The position numbers were made by a program, and so were the translations under genes. From NCBI GenBank assembly GCA_031280955.1, contig JAITGA010000015.1, positions 9,334-73,333 of the forward strand: a DNA stretch of 64,000 bases, given 5' to 3'. A model generated the notes under the pieces. The model saw only the letters and a program-made list of their open reading frames with translations, was not told the origin of the DNA and ran no database searches. Positions 23,278-35,491 of this stretch are shown here, in pieces. Source of the DNA: Lachnospiraceae bacterium. GTDB taxonomy: Bacteria; Bacillota; Clostridia; Lachnospirales; Lachnospiraceae. Each line of letters opens with the position of its first letter. Position 1 is the stretch's first letter.

Positions 23278-24087
23278 CTATGGGGTGACTTTTGGCGGTA
23301 CATATGCAGTAATTTTCGGTGAAACGGCTATTTTGGAGTAAATCTCGGCATAGGTCTTGCCGGAGATATTCTCGATATAATTTGGAACAAATTGCTTGGT
23401 GACTCCGGCTTTTTTGACGATATCAACAGCTTTGTTGTAAGCGATGGCGGCCTCAACTTCACTTTCATAAGTTCCGACGGTGTAATTGCCGACAATATGA
23501 AGCTTGACCCGAAAGCGATGCTTCCCCCGCTTGGTAACTCGCAATACCCCGTTGAAACGATTGATTATTTCGATATTTTCATAGCGAAAATCATATTCAT
23601 CCCCATTCATGAAACGATAATCACGGTCTTTTACGGCATAGTTTTTGATGCCATAACGATTGAGGATATTGATTTGCATACCAAAATCACAGATGAAATA
23701 ATGACCACCCCGCTTCATTATCGCCCGTGAAGAGTAAAAAAACAAATCTTCGGCATCAAATTTGAGGATAATCCCTGGAGCGAGATGGTACTCAAAGAAT
23801 TTTTGCTTTATCATAATGGGCGTGTTGAAATATAACCCGCTTTCACGGAAGTTGAGCAAGACCACCCATTTACTATAAGGTAGAACACGATGTGATGTAT
23901 AATCATGCAACGTGATTTCCTTATCCCTGACTATCATTTTGGCTTCCAGATATGCGGCATGAGCCATGAGCATTGTCGCAAAACTGCCCAAGCTGATGTG
24001 CTTGCGCTTGACAGTAATAGAAGAGCGGTAGTGCAGCTCCTTGTTCTTTTTTCGTTGCGGATAAACGCCCGGTAATCTTGTTTCCAT
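23278..24087 (-). CDS. Protein with two AP2/ERF-like DNA-binding domains
   Basis: N-terminal LPGVYPQRKKNKELHYRSSITVKRKHISLGSFATMLMAHAAYLEA and C-terminal FRVKLHIVGNYTVGTYESEVEAAIAYNKAVD resemble bacterial AP2 domains. The start is taken at METRLPG (24087); the track ORF extends to 24123. Confidence 0.5.
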   Translation of the reverse strand: METRLPGVYPQRKKNKELHYRSSITVKRKHISLGSFATMLMAHAAYLEAKMIVRDKEITLHDYTSHRVLPYSKWVVLLNFRESGLYFNTPIMIKQKFFEYHLAPGIILKFDAEDLFFYSSRAIMKRGGHYFICDFGMQINILNRYGIKNYAVKDRDYRFMNGDEYDFRYENIEIINRFNGVLRVTKRGKHRFRVKLHIVGNYTVGTYESEVEAAIAYNKAVDIVKKAGVTKQFVPNYIENISGKTYAEIYSKIAVSPKITAYVPPKVTP

Positions 24088-24135
24088 AATGTAATTATAC
24101 ATCAGGCAAAGGGGTGATGGCAACAGCGAGCATAA

Positions 24136-24335: not shown

Positions 24336-24419
24336 GCCGGCGTGTCGGAATGGCAGACGAGGCAGACTCAAAATCTGTTGTGGTTCACCCACGTGCGGGT
24401 TCAAGTCCCGCTGCCGGCA
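24336..24419 (+). tRNA. tRNA-Leu (anticodon CAA)
   Basis: Folded by hand. Acceptor GCCGGCG/TGCCGGC, D arm, anticodon stem GCAGA/TCTGT with loop CTCAAAA, long variable arm (GTGG-TTCA-CCAC), T arm GCGGG-TTCAAGT-CCCGC, discriminator A. No encoded CCA. Confidence 0.9.
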
Positions 24420-24593: not shown

Positions 24594-24761
24594 ATGAGTA
24601 CAGTAGTAAAAAACGATCATTTTAAAATGTTAGAAAAGAATCAAGCAGAGGTCAGACAACTTGTCTTAGAAGGCATAAAGCAGGTTCAAGAAGGGAAAAT
24701 ATATGACTTCAATGAAGCTTGTGATAGATTAGTGGAAAAATACGAAAATGCAAAAGAATAA
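24594..24761 (+). CDS. Putative type II antitoxin (55 aa; below the track cutoff)
   Basis: My translation is MSTVVKNDHFKMLEKNQAEVRQLVLEGIKQVQEGKIYDFNEACDRLVEKYENAKE. RBS GAGGTG. It overlaps the downstream RelE/ParE toxin start by 14 nt. Confidence 0.55.
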   Translation: MSTVVKNDHFKMLEKNQAEVRQLVLEGIKQVQEGKIYDFNEACDRLVEKYENAKE

Positions 24762-25050
24762 TGTATATATCTCTGATATTGCAAAACAAGATTTAGCTGA
24801 TGCTAGTGACTATATTGCCTATAAATTAAAGAATCCCATCGCCGCTATTAATACAGTAGAAGGGATTCGTAAACATACCAACACCTTAAGTGCTTTCCCC
24901 GAACGAAATGAATTGGACGATGATCCAGTCCTTGCAAACATTGGGATTCGCGCTGATTACTATAAAAACTATAAAATCTATTATATGATTGAAGAAAATA
25001 TTGTATTCGTTGTGCGAATTTTACATATGCTTGTTGATAGCCGCTTTTAG
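24748..25050 (+). CDS. RelE/ParE-family type II toxin
   Basis: 100 aa. ISDIAKQDLADASDYIAYKL ... YKIYYMIEENIVFVVRILHMLVD is the typical ParE/RelE fold signature. Confidence 0.78.
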   Translation: MQKNNVYISDIAKQDLADASDYIAYKLKNPIAAINTVEGIRKHTNTLSAFPERNELDDDPVLANIGIRADYYKNYKIYYMIEENIVFVVRILHMLVDSRF

Positions 25051-25106
25051 CTGTTTGAAACTTTTGGCTTAAATAAATGATAGTTTTGTTCAAAGAGGAG
25101 GATATC

Positions 25107-25655
25107 ATGTTTGGATTCAACAAGAAAAAGAAAATCAAAGAAGAAACTCCAGAAGAAAAGTTCTTTCGTGAAAATTACGATGATTTGTTCCTGCCACCGT
25201 CAGCGTTTGATGGTTATGAGATAGCTGATGATAGTAAAGAAAAGTTAACCGCTATTTTCGATATACTAACAAATGGTTTGGCAGATAAAGAAGAGATTAG
25301 TTTTGAAAGTAGATATGAGTTTGTTGATAGCTTAGTATCAATAAACTTTTTAACAAGTGACTTTGAGCAGCAGTATACTTTAACGGAGATAGTGAGTGAA
25401 CTGAATGGAGTTGCCAGAAATTTAAACTACAAAATCGAATTGTCAGAAGAAGATGTCATGCAAATAGATGATGATATCAAGAAGCAGGCAAGAGAGTATT
25501 TTACTTATATAACTCATCACGACTTAAATGTATGTTCAAAATTGTTAGAACAGCAAGGTTATGAGTTGTTTCAGGTATTCCTGGACTGTGGTGGTCTGAC
25601 GATGTCAATATTACCAAAAGAGAGAATTGAGGATTTGAAGAAATATACGAAGTAG
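25107..25655 (+). CDS. Acidic hypothetical protein
   Basis: ATG 25107 follows AAAGAGGAGGA. 182 aa with no recognisable motif; coding-like composition. Confidence 0.45.
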   Translation: MFGFNKKKKIKEETPEEKFFRENYDDLFLPPSAFDGYEIADDSKEKLTAIFDILTNGLADKEEISFESRYEFVDSLVSINFLTSDFEQQYTLTEIVSELNGVARNLNYKIELSEEDVMQIDDDIKKQAREYFTYITHHDLNVCSKLLEQQGYELFQVFLDCGGLTMSILPKERIEDLKKYTK

Positions 25656-25714: not shown

Positions 25715-26147
25715 TTTCACATTGGGGACGTAGTTTCGGTTTTATCAGAAGAGGACTTCTTCAAATGCTGCTCCATGCCACGCAACCGTGAACTTATGCG
25801 TGTATTCCGGGATATAGAGCTTGCGGAGCAAATCGGTTCAGGCATGAGCCGGATACTCAAGCTTATGACCGTTCAATCTTTGAACTTTCGCCAAGTTTTA
25901 CAGTTGTTACGTTTCTTTTTGAGGAAGCTTTATTTCGCAGAATAGCTTGATAATTGGCAAGATAATTGACAAGATAAATTCTGTACTTGATACATTAAAA
26001 TACAATCCGAAAGCGACTATCCCCGATTTGATTGAAGTTACTGGTAAAGGTCAGCGCACAATATCACGTGAATTGAAAGAACACCAAGATGCGGAACTGC
26101 TACGGTGCGAGGGTTCACGAAAAACCGGATATTGGGTAGTGGAGTAA
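25715..26147 (+). pseudogene. Decayed 3' remnant of an AlbA_2/HATPase_c_4-type putative regulator with a C-terminal wHTH
   Basis: ...PRNRELMRVFRDIELAEQIGSGMSRIL continues only after a frameshift (AYDRSIFELSPSFTVVTFLFEE). It then hits a stop, followed by an HTH tail ORF (25947-26147, ...TGKGQRTISRELKEHQDAELLRCEGSRKTGYWVVE). No N-terminal part is present. Confidence 0.45.
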
Positions 26148-26403
26148 AAAATTATGAATATGACTGCGCCGTAATGAAATGGTATAGATTTCCAGTAAAG
26201 GATTTTTCCGAAGCAGATTGTGTGGCGACGTTGATGGCGATGTATCAAGAACTAACGATGTAATTCTAAAGGCTCTCTGCAAGCAAAGAAAAATGGAAAG
26301 AATAGAACTGGAAAACTATTACCACACACCCTCTCCCCCCCATTTATTCTTATAGCGTTTCCGTGTCTATGAGGTGATCGTCAGCAAGGTACAGGAATAA
26401 GCT

Positions 26404-26685: not shown

Positions 26686-27549
26686 TTATTCGTCCAGCAT
26701 CAGGGGCTTTTTCTTCGCTTTTCGTTTCAAAGCTGCGATTTGTTCACGCTCCACCTGTGATATACCCTTTTCCGGTACAGGTAAATTTTCTGGCATAGTC
26801 CCACCCAAATCCTTGATGGTCTGGCGGACCCTTTTGCCGACAGTATAGTGCGTAGTGACTGCTGCTTGCGCTCCTTGTATGTTTTCGCGTTTTAGTTTGC
26901 TCTCGGTTTGTGTAATTCGGAATAAATTTGCCGCAAGCTCTTCGCTTCCCATAAAATCAAGAATTTTCTCTTTTGGCTTCAACCCTTTTTTCGTATGTAT
27001 GTCATCAACATCAAGACCACCGTATAATCCTTTGTATCCGGCGTTTTGAAAAATTGCATATTCTGCATTCGTTATCAGTCCGGCATTGCGGGCAGCTTCG
27101 GCAAGCATCTGATTCCATTGCTTGATATTGCCGCGCACAACGAGCCGTTTGTTATCTTCATCAAGTTGATTAAAGTAATCTGCGACTTCTTGGCGTCGCG
27201 TTTGTATAGCAAAATAAGTTTGACCGAATGCGATGACTTCTTTACGCGGATCACCGTTTTGAACAACAAGGTAACAAGCATAACGGGAAAGTTCATAATC
27301 TATGACGCACCTGTTAGTTCCGCTTCCTATCTCGACCATTTTGTTGACCTCAACAAAATGGTCTTCCATGTCGAAACCACTGTTTTTACAGGAAAGCCTC
27401 GCCTTATCAAGAACCTTTGAAAAATTACGCCATTCGGTATAATCTAATTCAACGGATAGTTCACGAGCCAGCCAGTATTCACCGCCGTCATCGCGAATGT
27501 GCTTAATGTCTTCGAATCGCTTGTATTCTTTAGCTCTTAGTTCACTCAT
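26686..27549 (-). CDS. dinD: DNA damage-inducible protein D (DinD)-like
   Basis: FEDIKHIRDDGGEYWLARELSVELDYTEWRNF..VLDKARLSCKNSG ... DYELSRYACYLVVQNGDPRKEVIAFGQTYFAIQTRRQE matches the DinD family pattern as I recall it. Confidence 0.75.
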   Translation of the reverse strand: MSELRAKEYKRFEDIKHIRDDGGEYWLARELSVELDYTEWRNFSKVLDKARLSCKNSGFDMEDHFVEVNKMVEIGSGTNRCVIDYELSRYACYLVVQNGDPRKEVIAFGQTYFAIQTRRQEVADYFNQLDEDNKRLVVRGNIKQWNQMLAEAARNAGLITNAEYAIFQNAGYKGLYGGLDVDDIHTKKGLKPKEKILDFMGSEELAANLFRITQTESKLKRENIQGAQAAVTTHYTVGKRVRQTIKDLGGTMPENLPVPEKGISQVEREQIAALKRKAKKKPLMLDE

Positions 27550-27910: not shown

Positions 27911-28546
27911 TTATTTTTCTTGTAAACCTCTCTTTTCAAAATAATCTTTATGGTTTTCAAAATGATAAATATATCGTGAAATAAATGCTTTATCAGTTGA
28001 AAGAATCGGCATCCTATTAGTTCCTTGCTTGTTATATGCCACACTATTTTCCAATAGAAAATCCGTCAATAAAGCTCTATCATCGCAAATAATGTACCAA
28101 AAATCAGAAATTCTATCATATTCTACAATCGTTAGTTTTTTTATGTTCGGTGATTTTGACCATTCTTTTTTTAACGTTTCTCTTTCTGTATCAAAAAAAT
28201 CATCATGTAACTCATGATTTTTTGGTAATTTTCTCAGCATAATTATACACTCATCAATAGACAAATTCATATTATTGATAAAGTGTTGTGCCTTAGTGCT
28301 TGAGTTGGTAGCATAAATCCTTAACAAATTAATATGTCTCTTCCCATTAATAGATTCAATTTTCTCAAATAGGTTTGAATAGGCATCATTTACTTCATTA
28401 ATGATTTCAACTGCAGTTGTTATGCTTGATTTGTTTTTGTGTGTATTCATAATTTTGTTGATAATCCAATGAACAAATTGGATTGCTAGAAATAATCCCA
28501 CTCCGCTAAAAAGCCATTCTTTGTTATCTGATAACCATGTAACCAT
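27911..28546 (-). CDS. Hypothetical N-terminally membrane-anchored protein
   Basis: 211 aa. One TM helix (WLFSGVGLFLAIQFVHWII). The remainder has no motif I can name. AT-rich, and co-oriented downstream of the kinase gene. Confidence 0.45.
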   Translation of the reverse strand: MVTWLSDNKEWLFSGVGLFLAIQFVHWIINKIMNTHKNKSSITTAVEIINEVNDAYSNLFEKIESINGKRHINLLRIYATNSSTKAQHFINNMNLSIDECIIMLRKLPKNHELHDDFFDTERETLKKEWSKSPNIKKLTIVEYDRISDFWYIICDDRALLTDFLLENSVAYNKQGTNRMPILSTDKAFISRYIYHFENHKDYFEKRGLQEK

Positions 28547-28792: not shown

Positions 28793-31393
28793 TTAAAGCT
28801 GCTCAATAGTAATATTGAAGTTCCTAATAAAAAATCCATCAGATTCAATACCGCTATAAAAGACAACAGCAGATTGATTAGCGCTTAGTTCTTGCGACAC
28901 CATATACACATTATTGATATACACATCTGCAATTTTATCTTTTACATATATTTTTACAGTTGTGAAATCTTCCAGTTCTGTATTAAATATTGAAATCGGA
29001 GCTTTTGAAATAGTCGTTCCATTTCTATATAACTCAAATTGTAAATCTCTTGAACCAAAGGCTTTGGCATATTTAATATGCGGGTCGAAACGAAGGCCCA
29101 AATGGTCTGTACTGGCAATTCCAAAAGCATCTCCAAATTCATTGTCCGCATTGGTACCTAAGCATATTGTTACTAACTTCGAACGATAATTTCCTCTTTG
29201 TTTTACTTCAAACTCGACTATAAAATCGGAATAACCCTTCGGCATTATATTGAGAGCTAAATATCCTTTTTCAACTAACAAACCGTTACTACCATCAAAT
29301 TCTAGTTTACCCGACGATGACCAATTTCTTAATGGCGTCCCGCTCGTAAAACTCTCATTTAATCCTAAATATGCACTCACATCACAAACAGCCATTTCTG
29401 TTCCATCCTCAAGAGATAGAATGATCGTAGTTTTACCAGCAACTTTTGCTTCTACTTTCCCATTATTATCTACTGTAGCTATTGATGTATTATTTGACCT
29501 CCATACCAAGCTAACATTCTTAACTCCTTCAATGTTTGTGTTATATTTCAATTGCTCTGACTCCCCAATTGCAAGGTTTAGAGAATTTACATCAAGAGTA
29601 ACTTCAAATATGCTTAACAGCACACTCATAAACTTTGCAATTTCAAGATTGATTTCTTGTTCAAAAACAGGATAACCTTTTAACAAGTCTTTTAGCTCAG
29701 TTATTCCATTATCATAATCGTTTGATTCTTCTGTGTTTGTATTAATTTCAGAAATACGTGTCATTACATATTCTTTGTCCTTTGTATACATTATCTCGGT
29801 ATATTGTGTAAGAAGCGAAAGAAATTCATTGTCTACTGGTATTAGACTAAGAGCTAAGTTTAATCGGTTGATTATTTCCCCATATGCCTCTTTTGCTTCC
29901 AGTTCAGAAATAGAAGTGAGTATGTCATTTCTGTATAGCTCAATTGACTCATCTAGCTTCGACTGGGCGTTTAGATAATCATCATCCCTGTTAATAACTT
30001 TTCTTAGTTCATCTATCGCTAACATATAGTTCCTATTTGCCATAGCCTGTAAACCATTTTGATATGCCTTGTTAGAGCTTTCTAAATCGACATCTACAGA
30101 AGGTGTAGTAATTGCATCAGATAATATGTTTGCAATTGGATCATTATGATTTCCACCCGGCATAATCGATCTTAGAGCAAAAAACCCAGCCACTATAACT
30201 ATTATCGCAATAGCTACAGCTATTATAGGTTTATTTGATCTATTAGTTGATTTTAGTAGCAAAGCAGATTTTTGATTACTTACTGGAGTCATCACACTCG
30301 GCCTTGGGGTAGAACCTGGTGGCTTGATAGTCGTTTGTGTCAAAGAGGATTTTGGCCTAAATAATTGCGAAAACCTGTTATCCACTTCACACCACGGACA
30401 AGCCGATAACATCTTATAGTATTGGTGGTAAGAAACATTTTTACAGTTCTTTAGTTCATTACGTAAATTTCTTAATGCGTGATGCCAATCTACTGGAGTG
30501 GGGCGACTACTTGGGCTGAAATGACCGTCAATAAATGCCTGCTCAAATAAGTCCTGTATCTCTTTTGGCAAGATTGAAATCTCCGGTGCGTATGCCGGTA
30601 TTTTTATGTTCGGAAAACTCTGCATGAACGGAAATTCGCCTTTAATAATGTTGTCAGACGGCTGCGGAGCTACTACAGATGATTGGCTTGGAATTATTGC
30701 ACAAGCAAATGGATGGACACCATTTATAAGTAGTTGAAAAATATGAATTGATAAAGCAAAACCATCCGTATCTTGCGAAAAGGTTGGCAGCTTTGCTGTA
30801 GCTAAAGTACTGCCTCCACGCATTTTCACTTGGATTTCTCCCGGTAGATATTCAGGGATACCAACATCGCAGCGATAAGTATCATTGCCATCTTTGATAT
30901 GATAAGAATCGGTATCTAAAAAGCAAATATGCCCGGTATTTGGATTTACACTTATGTTTTTCGGATTAAAGTCACCGCATATATGTCCTGCATTATGAAC
31001 AGAATCTAACACTGCACAAAGATTTTCTGCGATAATAATGCGATTTTCCCATGTCATGTGAGGATATTTTGCAGACGAGCCATATTCATAAATGACATTC
31101 AAATCCTCACTAATATCCATCTTAGGCATAATAAAGCCAACAAACTGCCCGCTTTCATAAAGGACATCTTGTGGCCAAGCAATCTGTGACAAAACACTTT
31201 TGTCTGGTGGAAAATCAACCATCCTCACAAGTTTTTTTTCTTTCTCGAGGCTTGTCTTTCCGGGCAGATAAATTTTTGCTATCAACTTCGATTGCCCAAT
31301 AACATCAAAAATTTCGCCTTCACCACCTGTTGCAATTGGTTTTGTTGCTAGTTCGTATAATAATCCACCTTTACCTTTACACTTCATTGTCAT
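28793..31393 (-). CDS. Membrane Ser/Thr protein kinase (YegI/TerY-P-type) with Zn-ribbon-like element, TM helix, extracytoplasmic helical repeats, Big_2 and lectin/DUF1080-like jelly-roll
   Basis: Numbering follows the 866-aa ORF. Gly-loop ATGGEGEIF, Lys in LIAKIY (K40), catalytic loop HICGDFNPKN (D141/N146), LDTDS in the DFG position, and IPEYLPGE. CKNVSYHQYYKMLSACPWCE, then TM helix at aa 388-407. Big_2-like region at aa ~598-672 (LAIGESEQLKY...WRSNNTSIATVDNNGKVEAKVAGKTTII). C-terminal beta-rich region at aa ~680-866. M3 (31387) has better RBS spacing. Confidence 0.85.
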   Translation of the reverse strand: MTMKCKGKGGLLYELATKPIATGGEGEIFDVIGQSKLIAKIYLPGKTSLEKEKKLVRMVDFPPDKSVLSQIAWPQDVLYESGQFVGFIMPKMDISEDLNVIYEYGSSAKYPHMTWENRIIIAENLCAVLDSVHNAGHICGDFNPKNISVNPNTGHICFLDTDSYHIKDGNDTYRCDVGIPEYLPGEIQVKMRGGSTLATAKLPTFSQDTDGFALSIHIFQLLINGVHPFACAIIPSQSSVVAPQPSDNIIKGEFPFMQSFPNIKIPAYAPEISILPKEIQDLFEQAFIDGHFSPSSRPTPVDWHHALRNLRNELKNCKNVSYHQYYKMLSACPWCEVDNRFSQLFRPKSSLTQTTIKPPGSTPRPSVMTPVSNQKSALLLKSTNRSNKPIIAVAIAIIVIVAGFFALRSIMPGGNHNDPIANILSDAITTPSVDVDLESSNKAYQNGLQAMANRNYMLAIDELRKVINRDDDYLNAQSKLDESIELYRNDILTSISELEAKEAYGEIINRLNLALSLIPVDNEFLSLLTQYTEIMYTKDKEYVMTRISEINTNTEESNDYDNGITELKDLLKGYPVFEQEINLEIAKFMSVLLSIFEVTLDVNSLNLAIGESEQLKYNTNIEGVKNVSLVWRSNNTSIATVDNNGKVEAKVAGKTTIILSLEDGTEMAVCDVSAYLGLNESFTSGTPLRNWSSSGKLEFDGSNGLLVEKGYLALNIMPKGYSDFIVEFEVKQRGNYRSKLVTICLGTNADNEFGDAFGIASTDHLGLRFDPHIKYAKAFGSRDLQFELYRNGTTISKAPISIFNTELEDFTTVKIYVKDKIADVYINNVYMVSQELSANQSAVVFYSGIESDGFFIRNFNITIEQL

Positions 31394-31487: not shown

Positions 31488-32510
31488 TCATATAAAGTTT
31501 ATCTCAAAAACCAATTGGCTTTGATTGCAACTTATATCAAATACTGGATTACATCTATATAAAAACCAGTATTGTTCTTTCGCAATAGTGGCTACCTTAT
31601 CTATTATCCCTTCCAAATCATTTACATTTTTCACTTTTGCAATGATATTTTTCTTTCCATGCATTAAGCAGTTTTCTATTATTTTGCCGAGCTGTGTTGA
31701 GTTGTATGCCACCAATGAATTAATTGACATGAAATCATTGCCGACAGTCGTACAAACAGGGATATCATTAATAATCAAATGATCTTTTTTAATATCTTCG
31801 TCTGTAAGGTTAAAATAATCATACCGATTTGTCTTGTTCGTTAAAGTCATGTCAAAAGTAACATCCAAATGATACGCATTTCCATCAACAAAAACAATAT
31901 TCCATGCGTGTCTGTCGTTCTCTGTATTACCAAGCGGATCGGTTGCTTTTCCAAATACAACGATGCTCTTCATCCCAAGATAGTCAAGCGATAGTTTTAC
32001 AAATTTCGCAATGCCCTCACAAACGGCAGTTTTATTAAGAACCAATCCGAGTACGGAGCTTGAATAATTTCCAAACGAATAATCATATTTAAAGTTGTTC
32101 AAGCAATAATCGTGTACATATATCTCCTTATCTATATCGCTTCTTGATTTAATACCATCAAATGCAGTCAAATACTTAAGTATTTCAACTTCTATTTGCT
32201 TAACATCTTTCCGTTTATACTTGTATTCAGGCTGTATTATGATTTTGCTTTTGTATAGGTCATTTACATAGCTGAAAGATGACACATAAAATAGCAAGGG
32301 GCTATCAAGCAAAACACTTTCAAAGACCATGAAAATCTCATTCACCGGCCGCATGGGTAATTCAATTTCAATATTAAAGCTTTTAATACCCGATGCTAAT
32401 CTTTTATATACTGTTTTTTGAATATCATCTAAACAGTCATAATAGTACTGGCCTGTGTATAGGGGAGTTCTTAGTAAATTATGTAATCCTTGTTTTAATA
32501 ACATCATCAA
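31488..32510 (-). CDS. Transglutaminase-like (papain-fold Cys-His-Asp) protein, cytoplasmic
   Basis: Putative triad in the canonical order and context: TAVCEGIAKF (C164), DRHAWNIVFV (H201), YHLDVTFD (D216). No signal peptide is evident. Confidence 0.78.
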   Translation of the reverse strand: MMMLLKQGLHNLLRTPLYTGQYYYDCLDDIQKTVYKRLASGIKSFNIEIELPMRPVNEIFMVFESVLLDSPLLFYVSSFSYVNDLYKSKIIIQPEYKYKRKDVKQIEVEILKYLTAFDGIKSRSDIDKEIYVHDYCLNNFKYDYSFGNYSSSVLGLVLNKTAVCEGIAKFVKLSLDYLGMKSIVVFGKATDPLGNTENDRHAWNIVFVDGNAYHLDVTFDMTLTNKTNRYDYFNLTDEDIKKDHLIINDIPVCTTVGNDFMSINSLVAYNSTQLGKIIENCLMHGKKNIIAKVKNVNDLEGIIDKVATIAKEQYWFLYRCNPVFDISCNQSQLVFEINFI

Positions 32511-32527: not shown

Positions 32528-33442
32528 CTAAGGTTTGGTATCATGTGAGAGTTCCGAATCTGCATCAGCCGTAGTGAAATTTCCTTCATCTTTATACAAG
32601 TGGGGATATGCCTTTTTGTTCCATTCCATTTGCAAGGTATCCCAATCTGGTTCTATGTAGTAGCTATCTTCTTTTAACTCAGGTAAAACTTTATCATTAA
32701 TTAGAACGATTATAGATTTATCATCGGTTATCGAAGCACATCCTTCACCATTAAGGAACTTTTCTCTTTCTTTACCTACTAACTCAATTGTTTCGGGTGA
32801 TGCACCCATGACATTATTATCCATAAAATACCTTATCAATGGAACGTATATTTCAACTGGTTGCCCTTTCAAAAGATATGGAAAAAATACATCATAAACT
32901 CCGTCAGTAGCAAGTAAAACGCTGGTAAAGTTACCTTCTGCCTTATTAATTATCCAGGTATCTTTTCCAGCCCTCAAAGGGATAACATATACATTTTCTT
33001 TTTTTTGTGGTTCCGTGATTTTCATGTAATCACCATCACTAGAAAGACCAACAATCCCACCATCACCGCTATGCCCGTAAGCAACATTTTTGCCATCATA
33101 AATTACAAGCGATAATGTGGTGTCATATTCAATTATTAAGTTACCGTCTGAAAGGGAACGTTTGTCAATTTCTTGCTCCGCATAACTAAAAGCTTTTTGA
33201 ATTATATGTAACAAGTCAGGAGCATCACTTACGGACATTATTTCTTCGCTGCAAACGCGGACAGAAGTTTCGACAGCAATGGACGAAGCAATATCAGAAT
33301 ACTTACAGCTTCCTACACCATCAGCCACAGCAGCTATTACAGTTCCATTTTCTAACCGCTCTGTTTTAATTGAATCTTGATTGCCAACTACTTTTTCCAT
33401 ATGCGAAGAGCCAATTGATGTATAATCATAAAAAAGAACCAT
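32528..33442 (-). CDS. PP2C-family Ser/Thr phosphatase
   Basis: GNQDS, AAVADGVGS, GHSGDGGI, LLATDGVYDVF and TDDKSIIVL motifs. The start is taken at MVLFYDY (RBS GGGAAGGGAGG); the track ORF extends to 33472. Confidence 0.85.
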   Translation of the reverse strand: MVLFYDYTSIGSSHMEKVVGNQDSIKTERLENGTVIAAVADGVGSCKYSDIASSIAVETSVRVCSEEIMSVSDAPDLLHIIQKAFSYAEQEIDKRSLSDGNLIIEYDTTLSLVIYDGKNVAYGHSGDGGIVGLSSDGDYMKITEPQKKENVYVIPLRAGKDTWIINKAEGNFTSVLLATDGVYDVFFPYLLKGQPVEIYVPLIRYFMDNNVMGASPETIELVGKEREKFLNGEGCASITDDKSIIVLINDKVLPELKEDSYYIEPDWDTLQMEWNKKAYPHLYKDEGNFTTADADSELSHDTKP

Positions 33443-33478
33443 GTAACCTGACCTCCCTTCCCAAACATACATAGATTC

Positions 33479-34198
33479 CTACCAATCACTTGTATCCTGC
33501 GGGTCAATTTTCTTAACTTCTTCCGGCAAGCGTGGCAATGCAGGCTTCTCGCCGACACGGCTTACAGAAATAACCTTCATACTTTCAGCAATCCACCGAA
33601 GAACTGGCGCAAAGTCAAAATCGCCAAGCTCCATGATGCGCGGATTTTCGCCTTGATGCATTGTAAGCTTTACTAATGTATTTTTATCGTAGCCAGGAAC
33701 TCCTAATGCCAAAAATCTTAGTTTACCTTGTGATCCTTTGGATTCTTCTAACTCAATCCGCTCTCTGGCACTCTCTATATCATCATTTCCATCAGGCAAG
33801 CCATCGGTAATCATGAATAACCAAGGTATGTAAACAGGCGTTCCCAATTCATTATAGAATCTGTTACGTTCTTTAAGCTGGTCAATAGCTAAGTGGATGC
33901 CTTTACTCATGGCGGTTGTGCCATCAACAGTAAGCGTTATTGGTTCCATTTGCGATATTGGTGTAAACGGAACAACTACTTTTGCCTCGCTGTTAAATGA
34001 AACAATGCAAATATCAAGACATTTTTGCACCATTTCATCGGAAGCAAGATGCTTGCGAAAATCCTTGATAGCTTGATTAAGGTTGTCAATCGCTTCGCCT
34101 TCCATTGAATATGATGTGTCTACTAAAAGAACGCAAGCCATGTGTGCACCTCCAGGATTTGCAATTTTTGGTGTACCAAAAGTTTCTTGTGATATCAT
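33479..34198 (-). CDS. von Willebrand factor A (TerY-like) domain protein
   Basis: Intact MIDAS: DTSYS (D27-x-S-x-S), GTTAMSKG and MITDGLPDG. Strong RBS GGGAGG. No signal peptide. Confidence 0.85.
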   Translation of the reverse strand: MISQETFGTPKIANPGGAHMACVLLVDTSYSMEGEAIDNLNQAIKDFRKHLASDEMVQKCLDICIVSFNSEAKVVVPFTPISQMEPITLTVDGTTAMSKGIHLAIDQLKERNRFYNELGTPVYIPWLFMITDGLPDGNDDIESARERIELEESKGSQGKLRFLALGVPGYDKNTLVKLTMHQGENPRIMELGDFDFAPVLRWIAESMKVISVSRVGEKPALPRLPEEVKKIDPQDTSDW

Positions 34199-34263: not shown

Positions 34264-34434
34264 TTAGCGTTCAATATTGTAGTCGCCGCGTTCATATGCT
34301 TCATAATTACCGCAATTCTTATAGTTATAATGATCTTTGCAGTAGTAATCCCTATCTCTACCATCTTTATATGTGTTATGATGCTCTGGTGTTACCCTGC
34401 AATATGAGTTAGTATAATCATAAACTGGACACAT
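34264..34434 (-). CDS. Cys/Tyr-rich micro-protein (56 aa; below the track cutoff)
   Basis: My translation is MCPVYDYTNSYCRVTPEHHNTYKDGRDRDYYCKDHYNYKNCGNYEAYERGDYNIER. AAGGAGG lies 9 nt upstream of the ATG. It is the first ORF of the co-oriented string. Confidence 0.45.
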   Translation of the reverse strand: MCPVYDYTNSYCRVTPEHHNTYKDGRDRDYYCKDHYNYKNCGNYEAYERGDYNIER

Positions 34435-34480: not shown

Positions 34481-34504
34481 TATCAAAAGGTATACCTTTT
34501 GATA
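34481..34504. promoter_or_regulatory. Perfect 24-bp palindrome TATCAAAAGGTATACCTTTTGATA (hix/res-like site 1)
   Basis: Read directly from the sequence. The half-site TATCAAAAGG resembles the TTATCAAAAACC half-site of Hin/Gin-family sites (from memory). Confidence 0.7.
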
Positions 34505-34584
34505 ATAATTCTCTGGGATGTTAAAATTTCGATTTAAGGTTGCTTTCACTCCCAAAATAGTTTAAAATAGGAAATAGTTTGAGG

Positions 34585-34610
34585 CTATCAAAAGGTATAC
34601 CTTTTGGTAG
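34585..34610. promoter_or_regulatory. 26-bp palindrome CTATCAAAAGGTATACCTTTTGGTAG (site 2, one mismatched pair)
   Basis: It has the same 20-bp core as site 1, about 105 bp away, and abuts the recombinase stop codon (34612-34614). Confidence 0.7.
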
Positions 34611-34611
34611 C

Positions 34612-35193
34612 CTACTTTTTGCCTTTCAATAGCCGCCATTCTCGTAAACGCCTGTAAAACGTGGCTTCTTTCAATCCTGTTTGCGTTAAAATATCCGAAA
34701 TTGATATATTTCCATGCTCCCATTGATTAACCAAAGAATCAAAATTTTCGGGGAGCTTTTTGGTGGGGCGGCCAAGATGCACACCCCGTGCTCGTGCCGC
34801 CGCAATACCTTCTCGCTGACGTTGTAAGAGATATTCTCTTTCCAATTCTGATACCGCTCCAAATACCGTCAACATAAACTTGCCAGTAGGTGTAGACGTG
34901 TTGATATTCTCTTTTTGACTTATAAATTTCACATTTTTTGCAGTTAGTTTATCTATCAAAACCAATAAATCCCGCGTGTTTCTGGCAAAACGACTTACCG
35001 ATTCAACTATAATAGTATCGCCGCTTTTTGCAGTAGTCATGAGTTTTTGAAGTTCTGGACGTGCCATATTTTTTCCGCTTAACTTGTCGGTAAAAATATT
35101 TTCCAACGGGATTTTCAGCTCGGCCATTGCTATGATTTGTCTATCTGTGCATTGTTCGGTACAGCTAACGCGAATATACGCAAATATTGCCAT
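34612..35193 (-). CDS. Small serine recombinase (resolvase/invertase family)
   Basis: 193 aa. Catalytic YIRVSCTEQ (Ser10), VESVSRFARN, E-helix, GRPTK hinge and a C-terminal HTH (ISISDILTQTGLKEATFYRRL). Confidence 0.9.
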   Translation of the reverse strand: MAIFAYIRVSCTEQCTDRQIIAMAELKIPLENIFTDKLSGKNMARPELQKLMTTAKSGDTIIVESVSRFARNTRDLLVLIDKLTAKNVKFISQKENINTSTPTGKFMLTVFGAVSELEREYLLQRQREGIAAARARGVHLGRPTKKLPENFDSLVNQWEHGNISISDILTQTGLKEATFYRRLREWRLLKGKK

Positions 35194-35491
35194 ATTTCAC
35201 CATTCTTTCTACACGAACTTCGTGTTTTTGGTTATAAGTCAGTATCTTCAAACTACCATTCAAACTAAATCATGGCATACTTTATATTTCTATACCATTG
35301 GTTTAATGTTAGCAAGGATAAAAAATCGTATTTCAAACTATTACCCCCCACCCCCTCCAAAGAAATATTTTGCATTTTCCCCTTTTACCAGTTATAATCA
35401 ATGAGAAAGTTGGAGAAGCGATATTTGGTTGTCACTATGGACTTTTACTTATTGTGGATAATTAGTTACTAAACGAAAGTGGAGGAAATCT

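Follow-up and report, generated by a model that had tools for sequence, protein, structure and literature searches.

In a stretch of 64,000 nt from a Lachnospiraceae bacterium (contig JAITGA010000015.1, positions 9,334 to 73,333; the whole stretch is here called the window), we analyzed a reverse-strand gene whose 866-aa open reading frame (ORF) is predicted to encode a receptor-type Ser/Thr kinase of the YegI family, with a kinase module in the cytoplasm and an Ig-like and lectin-fold module outside the cell. A sequence-only reading of the same DNA had described this protein as a kinase with a non-canonical catalytic loop and a receptor-like ectodomain. All features of that description were recovered at the coordinates given, and the computational checks that it proposed spoke for it; its account did not extend to the TerY-P operon, the mobile island, the exchange of ectodomains across the family or the recombinase and paired palindromes upstream, all described below. 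The gene and its parts, all on the reverse strand, are as follows, each with the evidence used to place it.

28793-31393, reverse strand: gene of the predicted receptor-type YegI-family Ser/Thr kinase (866-aa ORF; likely start ATG 31387, giving 864 aa)
30458-31393, reverse strand: predicted cytoplasmic atypical protein-kinase domain, aa 1-312 (AlphaFold2, Foldseek, profile against the PDB, hhalign against YegI, invariant residues)
30389-30445, reverse strand: zinc-ribbon-like element C317-x5-H323-x8-C332-x2-C335 (conservation; aligned with C..H..CPWC of YegI)
30233-30388, reverse strand: low-complexity juxtamembrane linker, aa 336-387, 40% S/T/P (composition)
30173-30232, reverse strand: predicted single transmembrane (TM) helix, core I390-L407 (hydropathy scan peak 2.95, flanking charges)
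29618-30172, reverse strand: putative extracytoplasmic TPR-like helical stalk, aa 408-592 (weak matches in the query, stronger in orthologues)
29381-29602, reverse strand: Big_2 bacterial Ig-like domain, aa 598-671 (Pfam PF02368, Big_2-type matches in the PDB)
28796-29380, reverse strand: C-terminal concanavalin-A-like (ConA-like) beta-sandwich of lectin/glucanase fold, aa 672-866 (AlphaFold2 and Foldseek)

A GGAGG box lies 7 nt 5' of the second ATG (31387) and 1 nt 5' of the first. Because of this spacing, and because an identical protein at NCBI is 864 aa long (MDR2546716.1, 'MAG: Ig-like domain-containing protein [Lachnospiraceae bacterium]'), the true start is probably M3, with an 864-aa product; the residue numbers of the sequence-only reading are therefore probably offset by +2 from those of the real protein. 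Numbering throughout follows the 866-aa ORF. Chance can be excluded as the source of this gene, since more than 200 homologues were found, with E values down to 1e-290. Family counts for motifs, TM helices and ectodomains were taken over the 120 best homologues.

Pfam Pkinase gave no match in the kinase part, even at E<=10, and NCBIfam returned weak similarity to the LanL kinase domain only; kinase identity therefore rested on profile searches, on structure and on comparison with YegI. The residues on which the kinase claim had been built were present where they had been placed, namely the Gly-loop G23-G-E-G-E27, K40, the catalytic loop H137-I-C-G-D141-F-N-P-K-N146 and L159-D-T-D-S163, to which E52 can be added. 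The motifs GGEGE, K40, HICGDFNPKN and LDTDS are all invariant in six close homologues, and K40, E52, D141, N146 and D160 are invariant across 25 diverse ones. By phmmer against the PDB, aa 118-229 aligned with DMPK/MRCK (E 5e-4), pairing HICGDFNPKN with HRDIKPDN and LDTDS with ADFGS, and a family profile of 25 sequences matched AGC kinases and TTK (E 1e-5 to 1e-4), the TTK match covering positions 8-247. The AlphaFold2 model of the kinase, computed from the 25-sequence alignment, reached a predicted local distance difference test score (pLDDT) of 90.9 and a predicted TM-score (pTM) of 0.91, and Foldseek retrieved protein kinases only for this model (CaMKII, phosphorylase kinase and Aurora B; E~1e-10, TM-score 0.55-0.68).

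Comparison of the 25-sequence profile with Escherichia coli YegI by hhalign gave a probability of 100% (E 5.4e-44), with the zinc ribbon among the 303 aligned columns, in full agreement with the earlier suggestion of a YegI-like kinase. The alignment pairs GHICGDFNPKN with GHVVGDVNQNS of YegI, FLDTDSY with LIDSDSF, and the C...H...CPWC elements with each other; S163 of the query falls on S162 of YegI. In YegI, VGDxxQxS and DSD replace the canonical motifs, with K39 and D141 present; its DSD is essential, as a swap to DFG or DSG abolishes activity, and S162 is needed for autophosphorylation, for which Mn2+ is preferred (10.1101/819920). YegI itself resides in the inner membrane, has two TM helices and keeps both termini in the cytoplasm (10.1101/819920). 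By its sequence-level defining features, the protein belongs to the YegI/COG4248 kinases. Since YegI has similar motifs and autophosphorylates, the non-canonical catalytic loop is a family trait compatible with activity, which the protein may possess, judging by its conserved catalytic residues and by analogy with YegI; its loop is nearer to the canonical one than that of YegI, because P144 and N146 are kept.

The C-x5-H-x8-C-x2-C element noticed after the kinase is a predicted zinc ribbon, kept at the same position in 117/120 homologues; kinases of the TerY-P group have been described with a C-terminal zinc-ribbon fusion (PMC11090510). The linker rich in S/T/P that had been reported between this element and the membrane spans aa 336-387. 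At least one TM segment follows the zinc ribbon in 119/120 homologues. In the query, four K/R residues flank the helix on its N-side and one R on its C-side, and no signal peptide is found; because of these basic residues before the helix and the missing signal peptide, a single-pass type II topology with the N-terminus inside and the C-terminus outside is favoured on hydropathy and charge. The same C-terminal domain is otherwise found in signal-peptide proteins, and the ectodomain types across the family are all of extracytoplasmic kinds. Hydropathy, flanking charges and domain types thus agree with the proposal of one TM helix and an external C-terminus.

The ectodomain had been read as TPR-like helical repeats, a Big_2 domain and a beta-jelly-roll resembling DUF1080/LamG modules. 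The repeats are supported in the orthologues; the query itself gave matches below the Pfam threshold (TPR_Slam E 0.025, YfiO E 0.065). More precisely, in the orthologous stalks of P0002-P0004 (P numbers are our handles for proteins, L numbers those for stretches of DNA), TPR_6 reached E 8.5e-7 (29.7 bits, cut-off 26.3), TPR_Slam 2e-6 and YfiO 1.7e-5 over 190 residues (25.1 bits, cut-off 25), and it is reasonable to call the predicted stalk TPR-like. The Ig-like domain was recovered outright, as Big_2 at aa 598-671 (E 3.8e-12, 46.4 bits against a gathering cut-off of 22.8). For the jelly-roll, the resemblance stood at the level of the fold and failed at that of membership in the Pfam families DUF1080 and LamG: DUF1080/3keto-disac_hyd (PF06439) scored below threshold on the last 195 residues (E 0.051, 14.0 bits against a cut-off of 26.8), and the best DUF1080 score among relatives of the C-terminal domain was 19.4 bits (P0128).

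A sequence profile of the C-terminal domain found nothing in the PDB, even at E<=10. The AlphaFold2 model of the ectodomain was limited to aa 672-866, because an alignment of the whole ectodomain misplaced N-terminal residues of the relatives; that single MAFFT alignment, in which ~26 N-terminal residues of the C-terminal-domain relatives were misplaced, was dropped. The resulting model is all beta (pLDDT 86.4). Its Foldseek matches in the PDB are ConA-like proteins, namely Emp47p, VIP36, ERGIC-53, legume lectins, CBM66, the Aap lectin domain and calreticulin (probability 1.00, E 1e-6 to 1e-5, TM-score 0.54-0.66), and its matches in the viral library BFVD are ConA-like domains of phage tail proteins. 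An Ig-like domain (Big_2, by Pfam) and a lectin-type fold (by structure prediction and Foldseek) were both found in the ectodomain, and the modelled fold suggests that the domain may bind glycans.

In sequence, the C-terminal domain belongs to a rare family. A word-index homologue search gave zero matches and missed the query protein itself; an exhaustive HMMER search against 1.84 billion representatives gave 16 proteins at E<=1e-3, with a maximum identity of 39%, two of them spurious repeat giants. The true relatives are small signal-peptide proteins that carry Cu_amine_oxidN1, Flg_new or LRR domains. A 382-aa metagenome protein (P0124) with a zinc-ribbon-like ...C...H...CPLC element at its start has this rare ConA-like domain at its end, and probably represents part of a second YegI-type kinase equipped with the same sensor. 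The closest full-length homologues (P0002-P0005), 52-54% identical overall, match it from the kinase through the TM helix and stalk to the Big_2 domain, and end in NPCBM-type domains in place of the lectin fold. On this comparison, the lectin-fold tip of the protein is a swapped-in module.

Across the family, similarity among the 120 best homologues is confined to the first ~345-400 residues. C-terminal to these come BspA-type LRR, LRR_8, FN3, Big_2, NPCBM, RCC1, ankyrin, TPR and SH3_3 domains, and further FGE-sulfatase, Flg_new, Glug, DUF6273, MORN and other domains. In a hydropathy census, 65/120 had a single TM helix with 150 or more residues behind it (median 545 aa), most of the others being polytopic. 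Identity among relatives is 71-92% in the kinase modules; past the zinc ribbon it falls to 21-52%, or there is no relationship. A conserved signalling module with many interchangeable outside domains has the look of a sensor family under diversifying pressure. We found no paper describing this receptor-like branch in the literature searched, which is weak evidence of absence.

The kinase gene is the last of an operon in the order small Cys-rich ORF, vWA gene, PP2C gene, transglutaminase-like gene and kinase gene. The genes preceding it, all on the reverse strand, are the following.

31488-32510, reverse strand: transglutaminase-like (papain-fold Cys-His-Asp) protein, no signal peptide (Pfam Transglut_core E 1.7e-6; C...H...D motifs)
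32528-33472, reverse strand: PP2C-type Ser/Thr phosphatase, counterpart of PphC (Pfam PP2C_2 E 2.5e-25)
33479-34198, reverse strand: TerY/YegL-like stand-alone vWA protein with an intact DxSxS metal-ion-dependent adhesion site (MIDAS; D-T-S-Y-S) (Pfam VWA/VWA_2 E~5e-7)
34264-34434, reverse strand: 56-aa Cys-rich ORF (MCPVYDYTNSYC...) with a strong ribosome-binding site, first gene of the operon (sequence, conservation)

The PP2C protein matches E. coli PphC by BLASTP (E 6e-7), and the vWA protein is 35% identical to E. coli YegL (E 6e-32). The transglutaminase-like gene lies between the PP2C and kinase genes, and occupies the same slot in L001-L004, L008, L012, L013 and L017. At the position of the 56-aa ORF, L004 has a counterpart with 80% identity and L001-L003 have one with 43%; in L131 the ORF is called as a gene. 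The vWA and PP2C genes adjoin the kinase in nearly every locus with enough flank (46 genome loci and metagenome loci), the carriers being Lachnospiraceae, other Clostridia, Treponema, Murdochiella, Eubacterium uniforme, Anaerolineae, Blastocatellia, Heliomicrobium, a cyanobacterium and a haloarchaeon.

According to PMC11090510 and PMC4978471, Anantharaman, Iyer & Aravind 2012 defined the TerY-P triad as vWA, PP2C and a Ser/Thr kinase (STK) with a zinc ribbon. A TerY-P variant with an OB-fold kinase is cited in PMC11090510 as an antiphage system reported by Gao et al. 2020, and TerY-P-like triads are reported as stand-alone antiphage systems and as tightly linked to CoCoNuT/McrBC (PMC11090510). 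Judged by the adjacency of vWA, PP2C and kinase genes, the protein is the predicted kinase arm of a TerY-P triad. Searches with PADLOC models gave none for the vWA, PP2C and transglutaminase-like proteins, even at E<=10, and weak generic kinase matches only for the kinase (MkoA, PD-T4-6, E>=1.7e-4).

In several contigs of relatives, a single vWA-PP2C-transglutaminase set is followed by two or three consecutive kinase paralogues; the same contigs also encode a 421-422-aa protein, a 58-65-aa Cys-rich protein and a VirD4/TraG/DUF87-type ATPase (437 aa). These arrays lie on elements bearing relaxases or integrases, or beside MNT/HEPN, AAA_21 and SLFN_AlbA_2 genes. Tandem paralogues with different ectodomains were seen at L001 5800-16167 and L004 5467-17791. 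The 422-aa protein, the 58-65-aa Cys-rich protein and the VirD4/TraG-like ATPase of these relatives are all absent from the window, whose operon is a minimal version of their set.

The operon sits on a low-GC stretch of ~24.4-35.4 kb (GC 0.33-0.38, against ~0.47 outside), at the left edge of which lies one further feature.

24336-24419, forward strand: tRNA-Leu(CAA), left edge of the low-GC island (ARAGORN and Rfam)

Rfam found only this tRNA. The island also carries a ParE toxin (24748-25050), a 192-aa ORF of no assigned family (25077-25655), a Bro-N protein (26686-27549) that matches the PADLOC candidate PDC-S13 (E 1e-115), and a 211-aa ORF of no assigned family whose N-terminus is hydrophobic by eye (27911-28546). 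Short forward-strand ORFs at 25775-26147 resemble, by eye, C-terminal pieces of an AlbA_2/HATPase_c_4-type (Schlafen-like) regulator and are probably what is left of a decayed gene of this kind; an intact AlbA_2/HATPase_c_4-type gene lies near the related operon in L004. Beside the tRNA, a 281-aa ORF (23278-24123, reverse strand) shows two stretches that look by eye like AP2-type DNA-binding repeats, with no Pfam match at E<=0.01. An imperfect direct repeat of 24 nt (26313-26336 and 35335-35358), the sole candidate found for the att sites of the island, was too weak and was rejected. No near-identical DNA turned up in phage or plasmid collections.

Directly upstream of the operon lie a pair of palindromes and a recombinase gene.

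34481-34609, no strand assigned: two 24-bp palindromes TATCAAAAGGTATACCTTTTGATA, at 34481-34504 and 34586-34609, flanking 81 bp (repeat/pattern searches, promoter scan)
34612-35193, reverse strand: small serine recombinase of the resolvase/invertase family, 193 aa (Pfam Resolvase E 3e-39)

The palindrome copy at 34481-34504, just before the 56-aa ORF, is perfect, and that at 34586-34609, 105 bp away, has one mismatch; 0 copies are expected by chance. The stop codon of the recombinase lies 2 nt from the second copy. With one flanking base on each side, the palindromes show the 12+2+12 geometry of hix/gix sites, and we take the half-site TATCAAAA to resemble the hix half-site of Hin. Each palindrome ends in TTGATA, followed at either side by a -10-like box 16-17 nt further into the 81-bp segment; of the two boxes, TAAAAT with TG (10 of 12) is the better match and faces away from the operon here, and inversion would point it into the operon. 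Thus, 34481-34609 is a candidate invertible promoter or recombinase site, a res/six-type resolution site being possible as well. The exact recombinase protein has no record elsewhere.

The exact palindrome was found in 78 metagenome stretches (L052-L129) from termite gut, human gut and other sources, with a second copy 105-170 bp away in 49/78 of them and a similar recombinase ~30 bp from the palindrome in 13 metagenome loci. One palindrome-pair locus precedes a 1046-aa protein of cell-surface type. Across the pairs, -10 matches pointing inward beat those pointing outward (3.2 against 1.6 of 6). Two of the contigs, L082 and L095, share homologous flanks and carry a 131-bp inner segment in opposite orientations (88% identity), which shows that this class of palindrome-pair element inverts in nature. 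It looks like a compact class of serine-recombinase invertons in which the -35 hexamer lies inside the recombination site.

A second, unrelated recombinase is found at that same place in the related TerY-P operon of L001 (also L002 and L003), where a 191-aa tyrosine recombinase and a 28-nt inverted repeat lie at 1317-2291. The repeat (1920-1947 and 2201-2228) brackets 253 bp directly upstream of the small Cys-rich ORF, with a -35-like hexamer in one arm and terminator-like hairpins inside the segment, and L001-L003 have it in the same orientation. Beside other TerY-P loci, recombinases were found in L001-L003 only, plus a weak match in L006; therefore the switch is not a general feature of the family. 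Phase-variable expression of the operon through the adjacent recombinase is a well-founded hypothesis and not a finding.

Taken together, we consider it probable, with a fair margin of doubt, that the protein is a receptor kinase for outside-in sensing that feeds a kinase/PP2C/vWA switch. The distal lectin-fold/Ig module would bind an extracellular ligand, most plausibly a glycan or surface structure, and binding would alter the oligomeric state of the kinase, which may then autophosphorylate in the D-T-D-S163 segment, around S163, and phosphorylate the co-encoded vWA protein, the transglutaminase-like protein or both. The PP2C would reset the switch, and expression of the operon may itself be switched by the serine recombinase acting on the two hix-like palindromes around the 81-bp promoter-bearing segment.

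Several points weigh against this outside-in receptor. The family has no member with a known ligand, substrate or output, and the cultured carriers that we found (Murdochiella and Eubacterium uniforme) have kinases with polytopic C-termini and no large ectodomain, so that no tractable model for the present variant came to light. The topology was judged by hydropathy and charge, a heuristic; the helical stalk was assigned from sequence matches; and the suggested lectin function comes from the modelled fold, while ConA-like folds also serve in protein binding and catalysis. As for the switch, the recombinase is about equally like gamma-delta resolvase (1e-28) and Gin invertase (5e-26) in the PDB, and the window's own segment was seen in a single orientation in two independent assemblies (the window and L131, the only other contig with it, which are identical).

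Other explanations can be set against the receptor kinase. The one that competes most seriously, and which overlaps with it by specifying a ligand and a purpose, takes the operon for a TerY-P-type module of defence against phages or mobile elements, or of conflict with competitors. Its ectodomains would detect phage particles, phage receptor-binding proteins or competitors at the cell surface, or else envelope damage, and the kinase/PP2C/vWA switch would trigger an effector such as the transglutaminase-like peptidase. We regard this as possible and still rather unlikely. The antiphage reports on TerY-P-like triads and their link to CoCoNuT/McrBC (PMC11090510) speak for it, as do the position of the operon on a mobile low-GC island with ParE and the PDC-S13 candidate (E 1e-115), the MNT/HEPN, AAA_21, SLFN_AlbA_2, CHAT and DUF1016 nuclease genes beside relatives, and the sensors themselves, which are tandem and rapidly diversifying paralogues; placing an immune module behind an invertible promoter would keep its cost down. 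However, the PADLOC searches yielded no model for three of the proteins and weak, generic matches for the kinase, the TerY-P kinases that have been tested carry an OB fold and are cytoplasmic (PMC11090510), the operon in the window is without a nuclease or other obvious toxic effector, and no phage sequence similarity was found.

An improbable alternative is that the protein is first of all an adhesin or surface binding protein, a stalk/Ig/lectin module on a membrane anchor whose kinase, instead of reporting a soluble signal, controls display or the response to attachment from the inside out. The family ectodomains (BspA-type LRR, Big_2, FN3, Flg_new, NPCBM and SH3) are indeed those typically seen in adhesins and in surface proteins that bind glycans, phase-variable expression is characteristic of surface adhesins, and the 1046-aa protein behind one palindrome pair would fit such a role. 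Yet conservation is far stronger for the catalytic residues, the zinc ribbon and the link to vWA/PP2C than for the ectodomains, which points to signalling as the selected function, and many family members are polytopic with no ectodomain whatever. It is more doubtful still, to the point of being very improbable, that we are dealing with a pseudokinase or scaffold that lacks HRD and DFG and merely tethers the vWA and PP2C proteins to the membrane. Such a protein would explain why Pfam Pkinase is blind to the domain and why the His-Arg of HRD and the Phe-Gly of DFG are replaced, but K40, E52, D141, N146 and D160 are strictly conserved, the operon has a dedicated PP2C of its own, and the motifs of YegI are still more divergent, yet YegI autophosphorylates and needs its DSD (10.1101/819920).

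The TerY-P/YegI triads are widespread and one variant is phage-protective. The Ig and lectin-fold module predicted on the outside of the cell makes the input of TerY-P directly testable by ectodomain binding screens. More broadly, we speculate, as a possible and rather unlikely case, that cassettes for surface surveillance, mobile and at times phase-variable, exist in gut and termite-gut Clostridia and in bacteria to which the module has spread, with one conserved YegI-type kinase/PP2C/vWA switch wired to an array of rapidly exchanged extracellular lectin, LRR, Ig or NPCBM sensors. If true, such cassettes would be a bacterial counterpart of the immunity conferred by plant receptor-like kinases, and phages, competitors or host glycans detected outside would be turned into an intracellular response via the vWA and transglutaminase-like proteins. 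Gut Clostridia may hold a large, unstudied repertoire of receptor kinases distinct from the PASTA kinases, and paired hix-like palindromes may define a compact class of serine-recombinase invertons common in gut metagenomes.

The closest known system is E. coli YegI (b2070). It has a homologous kinase and zinc-ribbon module with the lysine, the catalytic aspartate and D-[ST]-D-S at the same positions, is membrane-bound, and is encoded with a PP2C (PphC) and a vWA protein (YegL). YegI has two TM helices and no ectodomain, whereas the protein described here has one predicted TM helix and ~460 extracytoplasmic residues; it keeps P144/N146 in the loop, where YegI has Q/S, and its operon adds the transglutaminase-like gene and the 56-aa Cys-rich ORF to the YegI set. 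Similarly, the locus shares with TerY-P triads a TerY-like vWA protein, a PP2C and an STK with a C-terminal zinc ribbon, encoded in one operon and on mobile islands. The triads described so far have cytoplasmic kinases with a zinc ribbon or OB fold and are linked to DNA/RNA-processing systems, whereas here a TM helix and a variable extracellular module follow the zinc ribbon and no PADLOC model matches.

The upstream region compares with the Hin/Gin promoter switches in having a small serine recombinase beside two palindromic 12+2+12 sites, and in that the segment between the palindromes of a homologous pair occurs both ways round. Unlike in Hin/Gin, the sites are only 105 bp apart and palindromic with a symmetric AT centre, a -35-like hexamer lies inside the site, no enhancer was identified here, and inversion was not observed for the locus in the window.

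With the PASTA kinases (PknB, PrkC and Stk1) the protein shares its predicted layout, in which the kinase comes first, in the cytoplasm, a juxtamembrane linker and a single TM helix follow, and a ligand-binding repeat module forms the C-terminus outside the cell; a partner PP2C phosphatase gene is common to both as well. The earlier statement that its topology mirrors that of PASTA-kinase receptors with a different sensor therefore holds, the overall topology being shared and no PASTA match being found. PASTA kinases have Hanks motifs (HRD and DFG) and muropeptide-binding PASTA repeats, whereas neither Pkinase nor PASTA matches here; they have no vWA partner and are chromosomal core genes, whereas the operon in the window has a vWA partner and is island-borne.

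Finally, by analogy only, the plant L-type lectin and LRR receptor-like kinases also combine a lectin-fold or LRR ectodomain with one TM helix and a Ser/Thr kinase, and form large families with a conserved kinase and diversified ectodomains, often in tandem arrays. Here the polarity is opposite, with the kinase N-terminal and the ectodomain C-terminal, the ectodomains show no detectable sequence homology, the kinase belongs to another clade, and the gene lies in a bacterial operon with vWA and PP2C genes. In conclusion, what this comparison brings out as new is a receptor-like branch, with exchanged ectodomains and perhaps an invertible promoter in control, of a module that is already known but of obscure function.

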